A stretch of 64,000 nt of DNA from an uncultured Clostridia bacterium (lineage in GTDB: Bacteria; Bacillota; Clostridia; TANB77; CAG-508), in contig CANQCV010000004.1 of assembly GCA_947591045.1 (NCBI GenBank), forward strand, positions 8,090 through 72,089, given 5' to 3'. Position numbers and translations under genes: made by a program. The notes under the pieces are model-generated. The model made no database searches, was not told where the DNA came from, and worked only from the letters and a program-made list of their open reading frames with translations. Positions 47,856-61,516 of the stretch are shown piece after piece. Numbering within the stretch: position 1 is the first letter of the stretch; each line of letters opens with the position of its first letter.

Positions 47856-48110
47856 TTGCCAATAATTTCTAGTTTTTATGGTATGACTATAAAAATATAT
47901 TTTTTAGGAAAAGAACATAATCCACCACATATTCATGTTATTTATGGCGAATATACATCAGCAGTTTCTATTGATACATTAGAAGTTTTAGATGGTGATT
48001 TGCCAAAAAAAGAATTAAATTTAATAAGGCAGTGGATAAAAATACATAAAAAAGAACTATTAGATATATGGAATAGTCAAAAATTAAAAAAAATAGAGCC
48101 ATTAATTTAA
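47856..48110 (+). CDS. DUF4160-family protein
   Basis: ISSFYGMTIKIYF..EHNPPHIHV signature. TTG start after AAAGGAGG. Confidence 0.8.
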   Translation: MPIISSFYGMTIKIYFLGKEHNPPHIHVIYGEYTSAVSIDTLEVLDGDLPKKELNLIRQWIKIHKKELLDIWNSQKLKKIEPLI

Positions 48111-48120
48111 GAGGTGTAAA

Positions 48121-48369
48121 ATGTTTCATAAAATAATTGAAGTAATTCCTTTAAAAAATAAAATATTACAGGTAAGATTTGAAAATAAAAAAGTAAAATA
48201 TTATGATGTAAAAAAAATTATAAATGAAATAGAAGAGTTTAATGTGTTAAAAGAACAATCTATTTTTGATAATGTTACTGTAGATATAGGAGGATATGCT
48301 GTTATATGGAACAATGATTTGGATATAGATTGTGAAGAATTATATAATAATGGCACTGAAGAAATTTAA
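48121..48369 (+). CDS. DUF2442-family protein
   Basis: 82 aa. VIPLKNKILQVRFENKKVKYYDV pattern. Usual partner of DUF4160. Confidence 0.75.
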   Translation: MFHKIIEVIPLKNKILQVRFENKKVKYYDVKKIINEIEEFNVLKEQSIFDNVTVDIGGYAVIWNNDLDIDCEELYNNGTEEI

Positions 48370-48383
48370 ATAAAGGAGGAAGA

Positions 48384-48959
48384 ATGCAAAAAAAAGAAAA
48401 TTTATCTGTTCAGGAATGGTTACCGTTTGAACAAATATTAAATAATGGAATAATAAAATTAAAAAATGACGAATATATAAAAATAATAAAAGTAAATCCA
48501 ATTAATTTTAATTTAAAATCAGAATTAGAAAAAGAATCAATTTTAAATTCATATAAAATATTTTTAAAAACTTGTAATTTTAATTTTCAAATATTAATTC
48601 AAAGCAATAAAGAAGATTTAACAAAACATATTTTAAATATTCAAAATAAAATTAATTCTGAAAAAAATATTATTTCTGAAATTTCCAAAAAATATATAGA
48701 ATATATAAAAAAATTAAATAATAATCAAAAATCATCATCAAAGAATTTTTATATTATTATAAAATCTGAAAAAAATAATGATTTAAATAATATAGAAAGT
48801 TATATTATACAAGAATTAAATGATAAATATTTTAAAATAAAAGATTGTTTATCAAGATGTGGAAATTTAGTGACAGATTTTACAGAAAAAGAAGAAATAA
48901 AAAATATATTATATTCATTTTTTAATAAAAGAATATATATAGAAAATGAAGACAATTAA
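48384..48959 (+). CDS. N-terminal module of a Gram-positive VirB4/TraE-type T4SS ATPase, encoded as a separate 191-aa ORF
   Basis: SVQEWLPFEQILNNGIIKLKNDEYIKIIKVNPINFNLKSELEKESILNSYKIFL matches, from memory, the N-termini of Tn916-Orf16/TraE-type VirB4 proteins. Confidence 0.5.
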   Translation: MQKKENLSVQEWLPFEQILNNGIIKLKNDEYIKIIKVNPINFNLKSELEKESILNSYKIFLKTCNFNFQILIQSNKEDLTKHILNIQNKINSEKNIISEISKKYIEYIKKLNNNQKSSSKNFYIIIKSEKNNDLNNIESYIIQELNDKYFKIKDCLSRCGNLVTDFTEKEEIKNILYSFFNKRIYIENEDN

Positions 48960-49327
48960 TGTTTACATAAACACAACAAAACGAGAAAAATGGGACTTTT
49001 AGCAAATTGTTAAAAAGGCAAAATTTAAAACTTGGGTTTTAGAAAATAATTTATAGAAAGAAGAAGAAAGAATGCAAAAATGTTAGTAAAAGATAAAAAA
49101 GTAGAGACTAAAAGTTTATAAAAACAGGGCGGAAAATATAAGGGAATAAATAAAAAGAAGTAATAGCATAAAAAAATTTTAAAAGCAAAAAAGAATAAGT
49201 TTATACATCAAGATTAAAGAAAAAAGTAAAGAATAAAAGTAAAAAAAGAGGAAAGAAAACAAAAAAACTTTTTAGCTTTACTAAAAGACAAAAAAATACA
49301 TAAAATTTGTATAAAGAGGAAACTAGA

Positions 49328-59077: not shown

Positions 59078-59437
59078 TTAAGAAATTAATGAACTTATTG
59101 CAGATAAAATTAAATCAATAGCAAGGATAAATGCATAAGAAAAAAGAGTGCCTCTTATTAGTTTTTTTGCTGTTCGTATTCTTTCTTCATCTCCAAAGCT
59201 AAACTTTTTCATAAAAACTCCAACACCAACAGACACTGCAGCAGCAGGAGTTGCCAGTGTAAGTAACCATTTTTTTATAGAATCAAAAGCATCATTTAAT
59301 TTTGAAACAAGCTGAGGAGTGCTATCAAATAATCCTGCAAAAACTTCAGAAGAAAAAATAAAATAAAAAATTAAAAATAATAAAATGGAAAATTTAACAA
59401 TAAAAAAATGCTTTTTGTTTTTTAATAAAGAAATCAT
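59078..59437 (-). CDS. VirB2/TrbC-like (pilin-type) small secreted membrane protein
   Basis: Signal peptide ending SSEVFA-GL. The ~85-aa mature part has two hydrophobic helices (ATPAAAVSVGVGVF, LFSYAFILAIDLIL). Confidence 0.45.
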   Translation of the reverse strand: MISLLKNKKHFFIVKFSILLFLIFYFIFSSEVFAGLFDSTPQLVSKLNDAFDSIKKWLLTLATPAAAVSVGVGVFMKKFSFGDEERIRTAKKLIRGTLFSYAFILAIDLILSAISSLIS

Positions 59438-59455
59438 AAAAATACCTCCTGAAAA

Positions 59456-61144
59456 TTAATTTTTAAAATATGGTTTTAATTTTATTTTTTGTGGAGACAT
59501 GATTTTATCTCCATCTGACAAAAAGGAAAGACATGTAAAATTTTCTAGTTCTTGTGTAAAAAACTTTGTGTCAAAAATAAAATCTGTTTGTAAATAAGTA
59601 TTAATACTTTCAGAAATGCTAGAATTAGTAGAATTTAAAGAATTTGAAAAATAACTATAATCCGTTTGCCTTGCATTTTCAGAAATACTTTTTGATGTTT
59701 TTTGTTTATCTTCTTTTCCAATTTGTTTTTGAGCATTTTCTATAGTAAACATATCATCTGTACGAAACCAAAGTTTATTTACTAAATTTTGAATAATTAC
59801 TTGAACTGCATATTGATTATTTAAAGTATTTAATAAAGAAGTATAACTTTGAGTTGCAACAATATTAATACATTTTGCCTCTCTGCTTTGAGAGAAAAAT
59901 TGGCTATCAGAAGATGTTACATATTCGCTATATTCGTCTGAAATAAATATTGCAGGAGAAAAAGAAGTATTTGCGCAATTAGCCAAACGATTCATTACTT
60001 CAGTTTGAAAGTCTAATTTTAAATATGCAGCAATAATTTTAGATAAATTTTTAAATTCAGCTATATTCAAATTTAAAACAACAATCTTACCAGAAGAAAG
60101 TACATCTTCAAAGCCTAAAAAATTTAATTTTTCTATAGGGGGACAAAAAGTATTATAAACAGAGTAATCAGAAACAAAGCAATTTGTGATTCTTGTAATT
60201 TCAGACTTTAATATAGAAATTGTGCGTAAATCTAAAGAAAAAAACTCTTTTTCAAAAAAATTTAATGCAGAATAAAGATTATAAATATCACTATTATTAA
60301 ACTTACCGTTTAAAAACTGATTTCTTAAAATAGTGATTTTTTCTTTATAATAATTTTCTGTAGTAATTAATTTATGTATTTCTTCAAATGTAACATATCC
60401 ATTATTATATAGCCTGCAAAGTTTTATACTTTCAGTTAATATTTGATGTGCTTTATCGATCCAATATGATTCTGAATTATTAGGAGAAAATAAAAGTAAA
60501 ATATCTTTTAAACGATCTGCTAAAACAGAAGGTTTTAAGTTTGGCTTATGAAGAGGGTTATAACAAAAGGCACCACCTAATTCGAGAACAATTAAATCTT
60601 GCATACGATTATATTTTTTACAAAGTTCTTTTACTTTTAAATAATAGTTTCCTTTTACATCTAAAATAAGCATGGGGAGTTTATTTTTATAAGAAATAAA
60701 TTGCTCTGTAAAAGGATACATGGCACTGCTTGTTTTGCCTGTGCCGATTGTTCCGGTTATTAAAATGTTTTGAAATAAACTTTTTTCTGGTAAATAAATA
60801 GGTTCTTTATTTAAAGTTTCTCCAATATATAACTGTAATTGGTTGTTATACGGTTTTATGTTTAAAATACTATATTTATATTTTCTTTTTTCCTTAAGTA
60901 AATTAGCTTTTTCGAAAAAGTGAAAAGTAGAAAAGAAATGTAAAATGGTACAAAAAATATTTTTATATAAAAAGTTAGAGATAATAAAACTAGAAAAAAT
61001 AAATGTAAATATAAATAATAATTTAATGTACTTCCACAATTCTGGGTTTTTTAAAACTATGTCAAAAGGATGAATGCCATATGAGATAATAACATGTGGA
61101 GCAGTTAAAATAGGTGAAAAAAAGTAGTAACCAAAAAAACACAA
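59456..61144 (-). CDS. type IV coupling protein (VirD4/TraG/TraD family)
   Basis: N-terminal TM helices and Walker A LITGTIGTGKTSS. The start is uncertain: TTG 61144 has no RBS, and a GAAGGTGA RBS lies 4 nt before an in-frame ATA at about 61183. Confidence 0.75.
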   Translation of the reverse strand: MCFFGYYFFSPILTAPHVIISYGIHPFDIVLKNPELWKYIKLLFIFTFIFSSFIISNFLYKNIFCTILHFFSTFHFFEKANLLKEKRKYKYSILNIKPYNNQLQLYIGETLNKEPIYLPEKSLFQNILITGTIGTGKTSSAMYPFTEQFISYKNKLPMLILDVKGNYYLKVKELCKKYNRMQDLIVLELGGAFCYNPLHKPNLKPSVLADRLKDILLLFSPNNSESYWIDKAHQILTESIKLCRLYNNGYVTFEEIHKLITTENYYKEKITILRNQFLNGKFNNSDIYNLYSALNFFEKEFFSLDLRTISILKSEITRITNCFVSDYSVYNTFCPPIEKLNFLGFEDVLSSGKIVVLNLNIAEFKNLSKIIAAYLKLDFQTEVMNRLANCANTSFSPAIFISDEYSEYVTSSDSQFFSQSREAKCINIVATQSYTSLLNTLNNQYAVQVIIQNLVNKLWFRTDDMFTIENAQKQIGKEDKQKTSKSISENARQTDYSYFSNSLNSTNSSISESINTYLQTDFIFDTKFFTQELENFTCLSFLSDGDKIMSPQKIKLKPYFKN

Positions 61145-61179
61145 AAAAGCAGAAAAGCATACAACAAAAATAAAATGTT

Positions 61180-61335
61180 TTATGAAATCACCTTCTTTGA
61201 TTTAATATTTAATTTTGAACCTTGTTTATTATGGAAAAGTTTTATATCGAAAAAAAGATAAACCGAATAAAAAGTAATAAAAGAATTAATGATTAAAACA
61301 ATAAAAAAGTAATCAATTAATTTTATAAACAACAC
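61180..61335 (-). CDS. possible 51-aa single-TM protein at the head of the T4CP operon (below ORF-track cutoff)
   Basis: Own translation (GTG/TTG start): LFIKLIDYFFIVLIINSFITFYSVYLFFDIKLFHNKQGSKLNIKSKKVIS. Confidence 0.25.
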   Translation of the reverse strand: MLFIKLIDYFFIVLIINSFITFYSVYLFFDIKLFHNKQGSKLNIKSKKVIS

Positions 61336-61516
61336 CGCCTTTCCAATTTTAAAATAATATACAACAAAGTTTTAAATTTGTCTAGACTTTTTTTAAAAAA
61401 AGTAATAAATTTTAAAAAGTTATAATTTACTTTACTAAAAAAATGTGCTAAAATAATAAATATTATAATAAAATTGGTTATAATAATAAAAAAATAAAGA
61501 AGGGAAGTAAAGAAAA

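Follow-up and report, generated by a model that had tools for sequence, protein, structure and literature searches.

Why should the genes of a type IV secretion system (T4SS) stand on both sides of gyrA and the dnaD/dnaI genes, 7 to 20 kb from the replication origin oriC, on a chromosome that shows no relaxase beside them? The question is raised by a 64,000-nucleotide stretch (hereafter the window) of an uncultured Clostridia bacterium (GTDB lineage Bacteria; Bacillota; Clostridia; TANB77; CAG-508), namely, positions 8,090 to 72,089 of the forward strand of contig CANQCV010000004.1 (GenBank assembly GCA_947591045.1). A first-pass annotation had considered a domesticated or decaying integrative and conjugative element (ICE) or a T4SS-derived apparatus with a non-conjugative role. 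The current analysis favors, with a probability of roughly 60%, a minimized monoderm T4SS that was exapted from a Clostridia conjugative element, became fixed in the chromosome, and has been inherited vertically as core genome beside oriC. The domestication of a T4SS that is kept next to oriC is well supported by the sequence comparisons, and a non-conjugative role of the apparatus may reasonably be assumed. Its hosts are a large clade of uncultured gut Clostridia with small genomes of low GC content.

Hidden Markov models (HMMs) confirmed that gyrB and gyrA are separated by T4SS-type genes (left arm, 48384-53167, + strand) and that a convergent second arm (57843-61144, - strand) lies past gyrA and the dnaI- and dnaD-like genes (Table 1). 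The gyrB-gyrA interval holds six further open reading frames (ORFs), encoding DUF4160 and DUF2442 proteins, proteins of 191, 619, and 422 amino acids (aa), and an overlapping 93/157-aa pair. The right arm and the two genes downstream of it are transcribed toward gyrA in the order coupling protein, 119-aa pilin, 296-aa protein, 94-aa protein, DnaD/DnaB_2, and IstB/DnaC-like. The 619-aa ORF, whose likely start is the ATG at 49328 (612 aa), matches P-loop_TraG (E 1e-21), AAA_10 (E 8e-15), and the CD1110-family VirB4 model (E 5e-87; 293 bits, under the equivalog cut-off of 325), and both its Walker A (GTSGAGKS) and Walker B (YLDEIW) motifs are invariant among relatives. A VirB4-family ATPase of the monoderm MPF_FATA type is thus present, and the same holds for the VirD4-type coupling protein (T4CP), which exceeds the cut-offs of TrwB_AAD_bind (1e-7; 31.7 bits, cut-off 20.5) and TraG-D_C (6e-5; 23.5 bits, cut-off 22) and whose Walker motifs (GTIGTGKTSS and FISDEY) are likewise invariant.

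The first-pass annotation had described the VirB4 gene as split. The smaller piece, a 191-aa ORF, is a TrsD-like protein that matches NCBIfam VirB4 models (E 3e-11 and 1e-8) only over their first ~130-260 positions (1-133 and 99-261), and its counterparts in relatives carry PF26593 TraC-like. Both ORFs stand apart in 79 of 80 loci and are fused only in locus L072 (817 aa), their junction is found in all three relative frames among the loci, and the spacer between them varies from a 29-nt overlap to 1.1 kb; these are therefore two polypeptides and not products of a frameshift or of read-through. Far from being a lesion, the two-gene form is the standard one. Spacers of about 1.1 kb occur in some species (L022:8830-9946; L024; L078), and that of L022, the single one inspected, contains no credible ORF.

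HMM support extends to VirB4 and the T4CP, while the VirB2-, VirB6-, and VirB3-like assignments of the first-pass annotation rest on HMM matches below threshold, on topology, and on homologues within T4SS clusters. The pilin has the topology of VirB2: its signal peptide precedes two hydrophobic helices, which an invariant charged KKFSFGDEERIR loop connects; its mature part is nearly invariant in the orthologue alignment, and it is 33% identical (E 3e-8) to the PF18895 pilin of the conjugative element on the metagenomic contig L095 (SRR29457793_34055). The VirB6-like protein has a homologue inside the T4SS cluster of contig L094 (E 1e-12); a profile search of its family against PDB sequences gave no match, and hhalign found nothing in common with a 309-aa protein of a Vescimonas plasmid cluster. 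The 94-aa protein appears to supply the VirB3/PrgI/TcpE-like component of a monoderm T4SS: hhalign pairs its family with the PrgI domain of a fused PrgI-VirB4 protein (probability 84%, E 7e-6), and it is 31 to 35% identical to the small ORF directly upstream of VirB4/TrsD in L095 and L094. The PDB sequence profile search gave nothing meaningful for it.

Two further proteins belong to the left arm. The 422-aa TadZ/CpaE-like protein shows full-length homology to the REC+CbiA protein encoded 3' of VirB4 in L094 (26%, E 9e-38), as well as to REC+CbiA counterparts in L095, L096, L099, and L101, and within the clade its gene is invariably 3' of VirB4. The last gene encodes a clade-specific 240-aa protein that had been described as secreted looking, but neither a signal peptide nor a transmembrane segment is predicted for this family, which has no Pfam relatives and for which the PDB sequence profile search yielded nothing meaningful. 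Nor does it match the CpaB-like protein of L094.

The comparison of the gyrB-gyrA interval that the first-pass annotation had called for revealed the synteny of the window in about 90 related loci and metagenome contigs; the clade loci cover +/-10 kb around VirB4, 1.6 Mb in all. Their order is dnaA-dnaN-recF-gyrB-(variable gap)-TrsD-like-VirB4-TadZ-like-240-aa gene-gyrA, continued by dnaI-like-dnaD-like-VirB3-like-VirB6-like-pilin-T4CP, and past the T4CP, relatives carry DUF1858, tRNA, HNH, SDR, CBM53, and LexA-like genes. Counted over loci with enough flank, gyrB lies upstream of VirB4 in 66/66, gyrA downstream of the left arm in 56/59, the VirB3/VirB6-like genes beyond dnaD in 42/43, and the T4CP beyond the pilin in 32/32, and the T4SS locus is present in every one of them. 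Both outer flanks consist of conserved core genes. The apparatus is core genome of the clade and not an island. The loci where gyrA is not found 3' of the left arm are L071, L082, and L085; in L082 (13640-21776), the left arm is followed by genes for an SDR, a DinB-like polymerase, and a membrane protein and by topA.

Thousands of close relatives exist for the main VirB4 ORF, the best 120 of which are all 80 to 88% identical and 600 to 642 aa long. In a scan with one genome per species, 502 species genomes carried the clade-type VirB4; the best 80 of the 502 are without exception metagenome-assembled genomes of uncultured Clostridia from human, rabbit, chicken, and mouse gut, and the carriers include "Clostridium sp. 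CAG:567" and the circular 1.57-Mb genome OZ007016.1. Insertions accumulate in the gap between gyrB and the TrsD-like gene (window 47185-48383), which measures between 170 nt and 6.8 kb in the related loci. This hot spot, the sole island-like part of the locus, has collected toxin-antitoxin-like and other cargo (also in L042 and L071); genes judged by eye to be AbiE-like, NUDIX, and peptidase genes fill it in L031 (2232-9039). The DUF4160/DUF2442 pair, seen in only about eight related loci, is an accessory insertion in this gap and lies outside the conserved set. Another insertion, a ParE-type toxin pair, separates the 240-aa gene from gyrA in L087.

The gene set is also under constraint. Apart from the frameshifts treated below, reading frames are intact throughout the relatives' loci. 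Ratios of nonsynonymous to synonymous substitution rates (dN/dS; Nei-Gojobori, 14 closely related pairs) are lowest for the T4CP (0.054), followed by the VirB6-like protein and the pilin (both 0.078), VirB4 (0.080), the VirB3-like protein (0.086), the TrsD-like protein (0.098), and the 240-aa gene (0.09-0.12). Except for the TadZ-like gene, the T4SS range of 0.05 to 0.12 is comparable to recF (0.074) and the dnaI-like gene (0.10), while gyrA, gyrB, and dnaN (0.025-0.031) and the dnaD-like gene (0.028) are more constrained. Pairwise protein distances correlate with gyrase distance (Pearson r: T4CP, 0.95; VirB4, 0.89; TrsD and VirB6, both 0.86) in the same range as those of dnaA, dnaN, and recF (0.87-0.88), and the divergence of VirB4 is 1.17 times that of gyrase, slower than DnaA, DnaN, and RecF. 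Codivergence and constraint are evidence against frequent horizontal replacement, and the sequence data thus support vertical inheritance of the gene set.

These results bear on the proposal that the locus is the remnant of a decaying ICE or part of an intact one that spans the interval. The seemingly split VirB4, a frameshift in the 240-aa gene, and tRNA genes bordering the right arm would fit, but the two-gene VirB4 is an ancestral state found universally, purifying selection acts on every gene, and the components are intact across dozens of species (dN/dS 0.05-0.12; TadZ-like, 0.28). Intact frames, purifying selection, codivergence with gyrase, and invariant Walker motifs exclude a decaying element. 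A complete ICE is refuted by the core-gene synteny that about 90 loci retain within the interval and in both flanks, by repeats that are all AT-rich chance matches and none att-like, as already stated in the first-pass annotation, and by the sole integrase being 40 kb off. Either form of this proposal is hardly credible. The annotation had reported no integrase at all, but a tyrosine integrase gene (5446-6582) lies beside tRNA-Ser (6704-6797) across oriC. It belongs to a small integrated island (1-6800) with a LexA-like repressor (3697-4383) and a gene that by eye looks PemK/MazF-like (4401-5144), and this island is unrelated to the T4SS. A defense system was also considered for the locus and rejected, PADLOC giving generic P-loop matches only.

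Where, then, does the apparatus come from? When representatives of 50%-identity clusters were searched exhaustively, a few VirB4 lineages fell between the clade (73%) and ordinary VirB4s (34-38%). The most telling is the L095 element (VirB4 47% and unsplit; GC, 35%), ordered PF03432 relaxase, MobC, VirB3 (31%), VirB4, PF18895 pilin (33%), T4CP, M23 peptidase, and VirB6-like, with a T4CP sharing 37.5% identity with that of the window along the full length and, farther on (L095:20481-22550), a TadZ-like gene and RcpC. In L094 (VirB4 53%; GC, 40%), genes for VirB6, PrgI, TrsD, VirB4, and a TadZ-like protein are followed by genes for CpaB-like and CpaE-like proteins, a T2SSE ATPase, TadB/C-like proteins, and small pilins, and L101 (VirB4 38%) combines TrsD, VirB4, a TadZ-like protein, and a T2SSE ATPase. 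In L097/L098 (VirB4 49%; GC, 22-24%) and L099 (VirB4 45%; GC, 22%), a gyrB with 68 to 69% and 75% identity, respectively, to that of the window precedes TrsD and VirB4 by a few genes, which places the origin of the gyrB linkage before the sampled clade, in deeper lineages with VirB4 identities of 45 to 49%.

The TrsD-VirB4-TadZ triad is a conserved core, and the contexts of the L094-L101 relatives indicate that the apparatus derives from a type of conjugative element coupling a T4SS with a Tad-like pilus. The TrsD + VirB4 two-gene form also occurs in ordinary Clostridial elements, e.g., L100. Compared with L095, which shares homologous VirB3, VirB4, PF18895 pilin, T4CP, VirB6-like, and TadZ-like proteins, the clade's locus lacks the PF03432 relaxase, MobC/NikA, and the M23 peptidase, has a split VirB4, and is divided and close to oriC instead of forming one contiguous cluster away from it. 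A loss of relaxase, MobC, and cell wall hydrolase in cis is thus supported, and the vertical inheritance and the relaxase-bearing relative bear out the domesticated conjugative apparatus that the first-pass annotation had put forward. Annotated plasmids are remote: the T4CP matched 16 records only (best, 30% identity), and the best VirB4 (38%) is encoded on a Vescimonas plasmid. The closest plasmid clusters, those of Vescimonas, Butyrivibrio, and Agarilytica, are only distantly related and were uninformative on the origin.

Nevertheless, the apparatus might still conjugate, with relaxase, oriT, and hydrolase encoded elsewhere, and move chromosomal DNA in an Hfr-like or Mycoplasma-type manner or mobilize other elements. 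A conserved, motif-intact VirD4-type T4CP heads the right arm, such proteins are a hallmark of substrate-exporting, mostly DNA-exporting, systems, the nearest related element (L095) is conjugative, VirB4 scores against a Mycoplasma ICE VirB4 model, and T4CP and relaxase are encoded away from virB4 in many systems (PMC12102498). On the other hand, the window contains no relaxase-like ORF and no T4SS-type hydrolase, as the first-pass annotation had maintained, and homologues of the L095 relaxase and MobC are absent from the window and from the 1.6 Mb of clade loci. It would also be unusual for conjugation genes to be inherited strictly vertically and constrained like housekeeping genes. What would identify a conjugative element, i.e., a relaxase, a delimiting integrase, att repeats, and variable presence among relatives, was not found in these stretches, and the missing relaxase in cis favors a non-conjugative substrate. 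We consider ongoing conjugation unlikely.

DNA importers with VirB2, VirB6, and VirB4 parts have arisen before by domestication of conjugation machinery, as in ComB and Ced. Exaptation for competence, comparable to Helicobacter pylori ComB or archaeal Ced/Ted, would therefore have precedents (for Ced, see also PMC12102498), and small genomes may rely on imported DNA or nucleotides. Yet both ComB and Ced lack a VirD4-type T4CP, which is conserved here (dN/dS 0.05), and no competence genes are linked to the locus. The retention of a constrained T4CP favors export or exchange over uptake, which makes a DNA-uptake machine improbable.

The TadZ-like protein leads to another proposal, according to which the locus mainly builds a pilus or adhesion organelle, a VirB2 filament working or positioned with the clade's Tad pilus, and translocates nothing. 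The nearly invariant mature pilin and the constant place of the TadZ-like gene are in line with it, as are the Tad-type genes directly downstream in L094 and L101 and the conserved Tad pilus cluster described for the uncultured gut order TANB77 (PMC11680825). But the locus contains no Tad ATPase or platform gene, homologues of the relatives' T2SSE ATPase being absent from the clade loci and the window, and the retained T4CP points to a translocated substrate, so that a purely adhesive function is, if anything, still harder to defend than DNA uptake. Linkage of Tad-type genes to VirB4-type T4SS genes was seen in L094:5066-12744, L101:4315-7732, and L095:20481-22550, which suggests a recurrent genetic coupling of both machineries in Clostridia-related elements.

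Several observations weigh against a domesticated T4SS as the explanation. A VirB8-like protein and a peptidoglycan hydrolase count as core parts of Gram-positive T4SSs. None of the ORFs of either arm matches VirB8/TcpC/PrgL or has a fitting topology, and no homologue of the relatives' M23, NlpC/P60, and C39 proteins that could serve as a VirB1-like hydrolase was found in the window and the 90 clade loci; the canonical set is accordingly only partly present in cis. The matches of three components are weak: the pilin hits T4SS_pilin PF18895 under the cut-off (E 8e-4), TrbL/VirB6 is matched by 21 of 30 VirB6-like orthologues, all below threshold (best E, 0.003), and PrgI by 6 of 35 VirB3-like orthologues, all under the Pfam gathering cut-off. 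Structure models are of low confidence both for the VirB6-like protein (AlphaFold2 from a single sequence, pLDDT 47) and for the 240-aa protein (21-sequence alignment, pLDDT 44). The TadZ-like protein is the fastest-evolving member of the set (dN/dS 0.28). A relaxase may also be encoded elsewhere in the genome, since the search spanned the window and the 90 clade loci.

Frameshifts belong to the same side of the balance. In the species studied here, a 1-nt insertion (C at 52702) interrupts the 240-aa gene, and the same split in three independent metagenome assemblies (L089-L091) identifies it as a real mutation and not an assembly error. In the closest sister species (L001-L003), the T4CP gene (e.g., L002:20569-21833) consists of two ORFs, due to two frameshifts about 40 nt apart that fall between both halves of the ATPase domain, with the same gene calls in three different samples. 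Together, these cases indicate that the machine may tolerate the loss or splitting of some parts, which may therefore be dispensable.

If the domesticated T4SS is nevertheless accepted, its parts suggest how it might operate. The VirB6-like and VirB3-like proteins would form a membrane platform, at which the TrsD-like protein and VirB4 energize assembly and extract the VirB2-like pilin to build a short pilus or conduit. The channel would receive its substrate, either protein or DNA that a factor encoded elsewhere handles, from the VirD4-type T4CP. TadZ/CpaE-type proteins localize their machines, and the TadZ-like protein therefore probably positions or licenses the T4SS, possibly together with a Tad pilus encoded elsewhere. 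The site close to oriC would keep gene dosage high and inheritance stable. Contact-dependent exchange with neighboring cells, rather than transfer of a mobile element, is the likely use, a role that has also been proposed for the T4SS of Patescibacteria.

The latter is the closest known counterpart in organization. Patescibacteria possess a relaxase-less MPF_FATA-derived T4SS near dnaA, dnaN, and rnpA, with TrsD, VirB4, PrgI, VirB6, and PF18895 pilins (Quinonero-Coronel et al. 2025, PMC12102498), whose proximity to the origin was argued to raise gene dosage (PMC12102498) and which is essential for epibiotic growth in one species (Wang et al. 2023, reviewed in PMC12857230). A 2025 review regards this system as unique among monoderms and VirB2-type pilins as absent from Gram-positive systems except Patescibacteria (PMC12857230). 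Both systems are chromosomal, of monoderm MPF_FATA derivation, close to dnaA/dnaN/rnpA, and without a relaxase in cis, their hosts are mostly uncultured with small genomes, and the components seem to agree as well, i.e., a TrsD-like protein beside VirB4, PrgI/VirB3, VirB6, and a VirB2-like PF18895 pilin (here sub-threshold). They differ in that the host is a member of the Bacillota (Clostridia), that a single, highly conserved pilin gene replaces divergent pilin arrays, and that the T4CP is encoded in cis and strongly conserved, while it is mostly distant in the Candidate Phyla Radiation and non-essential in one tested species. Moreover, the TadZ-like ATPase and the 240-aa helical protein are constant here, and the set is bipartite around gyrA and dnaD/dnaI. 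Because the host is a member of the Clostridia, domestication independent of the Patescibacteria system is our default assumption.

Other systems share individual traits. The pGO1 subclass of MPF_FATA and the Patescibacteria are both known to have the TrsD + VirB4 architecture (PMC12102498); as far as descriptions allow comparison, the Trs systems of pGO1/pSK41 also encode the VirB4 N-domain as a separate small protein beside VirB4 (TrsD/TrsE; PMC12102498), but these are plasmid conjugation systems with a relaxase and reportedly without a VirB6 homologue or VirB2 pilin. The rvh T4SS of Rickettsiales is likewise conserved, vertically inherited, and spread over scattered chromosomal islands of reduced genomes without a mobile element, yet it is a diderm MPF_T system with outer membrane core parts and duplicated components in obligate intracellular hosts (PMC2653234). 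Exaptation of a minimal T4SS subset, be it to export protein or to import DNA, has also produced the type IV-C system of Streptococcus suis, H. pylori ComB, and archaeal Ced/Ted, of which the former differs by its location on a pathogenicity island, a VirB1-like hydrolase, and the lack of a pilin and the latter two by the lack of a VirD4 coupling protein. With Tad/Flp systems, the locus shares the TadZ architecture of the 422-aa protein, encoded in relatives at the junction of T4SS and Tad genes, but only this protein, since the CpaF/TadA ATPase, TadB/C platform, and CpaB are missing from the locus. Published pilus work on TANB77 concerns a separate Tad locus (PMC11680825), and no published description of the locus was found in the literature on T4SSs of TANB77 or of Clostridia.

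The surroundings are those of an origin region typical of Firmicutes, within a window of about 26% GC. Two perfect DnaA boxes upstream of dnaA (41033-41053), four one-mismatch boxes in the dnaA-dnaN spacer (42542-42708), and a coinciding minimum of the cumulative GC skew at about 41 kb place oriC at about 41 to 42.7 kb. The DnaI/DnaC-like and DnaD genes are probably host replication genes downstream of and co-oriented with the right arm. The first-pass annotation had found a host-like base composition, which holds only in part: with a GC of 0.14-0.25, the left arm is richer in AT than the window as a whole (mean, 0.26), although recF has 0.20. Promoter scans gave a density no higher than in shuffled sequence, for which reason claims on operons are limited to gene order and the single gyrA/dnaI terminator.

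Table 1. Features of the origin region and of the two T4SS arms (positions in the 64-kb window)
Feature	Position	Strand	Basis or remark
jag/yidC/rnpA		-	precede dnaA
oriC landmarks	41033-42708		context only, outside the apparatus
dnaA	41103-42440		
dnaN, recF, RemA-like gene			between dnaA and gyrB, in this order
gyrB	45271-47184		
DUF4160	47856-48110	+	Pfam, E 1e-21
DUF2442	48121-48369	+	Pfam, E 2e-10
TrsD-like protein, VirB4 N-terminal domain, 191 aa	48384-48959	+	NCBIfam VirB4 models
Purine-rich non-coding spacer	48960-49306		between TrsD-like gene and VirB4
VirB4-family ATPase, main body, 619-aa ORF	49307-51166	+	HMM
TadZ/CpaE-like protein, 422 aa	51179-52447	+	receiver-like N-domain and MinD/ParA-type ATPase domain
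240-aa clade-specific all-helical soluble protein	52444-53167	+	here 93-aa and 157-aa ORFs
gyrA	53302-55743	+	host housekeeping gene between the two arms
Terminator-like bidirectional hairpin	55742-55786		between convergent gyrA and dnaI-like genes
IstB/DnaC-like (DnaI/DnaC-like helicase loader)	55777-56790	-	Pfam
DnaD/DnaB_2 gene	56810-57808	-	Pfam
VirB3/PrgI/TcpE-like small membrane protein, 94 aa	57843-58127	-	
VirB6-like polytopic membrane protein, 296 aa	58148-59038	-	4-5 predicted transmembrane segments
VirB2-like pilin, 119 aa	59078-59437	-	topology and weak PF18895
VirD4-type coupling protein (T4CP), 562 aa	59456-61144	-	HMM; N-terminal transmembrane segment
tRNA-Lys, tRNA-Glu, tRNA-Thr cluster	61820-62110	+	conserved flank past right arm

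Two further observations were made elsewhere in the window. A region of about 2.4 kb (7280-9700), flanked by a tadA-like deaminase gene and a DinD-like gene, has a GC content near 15%, is T-rich on the + strand, and contains no ORF of at least 90 aa; it is packed with degenerate short-period repeats and holds two copies of a unit of about 1.1 kb (7498-7669 resembles 8565-8718). Two genes on the - strand (27103-28320 and 28954-30411) encode large proteins whose near-identical N-termini resemble type IV pilin leaders (MINKNKGITLIALVVTIIILIILATVSINMVVGENGLI...) and whose C-terminal domains diverge.

With the locus described here, a relaxase-less, origin-proximal, vertically inherited T4SS with a VirB2-like pilin is now known from a second phylum and from hundreds of species, in a lineage that is prevalent in the animal and human gut. 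It offers a natural comparison for the exaptation of conjugation machines, in which a relaxase-bearing relative is still identifiable and the coupling protein was kept. The locus also gives molecular access to the biology of a clade that has not been cultured and raises the questions of whether its members adhere to partners, feed from them, or inject into them and whether co-culture is feasible. Only tentatively, and with considerable doubt, we suggest that the clade, plausibly the GTDB order TANB77, may depend on its core T4SS and a Tad pilus for an obligate contact-dependent exchange between cells. If true, the Bacillota would have their own counterpart to the T4SS-dependent life of Patescibacteria as epibionts, and pilus-forming, relaxase-less T4SSs would have evolved or spread more than once among monoderms. 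Such a dependence would also help to explain the reduced genomes of these Clostridia and the failure to bring them into culture.

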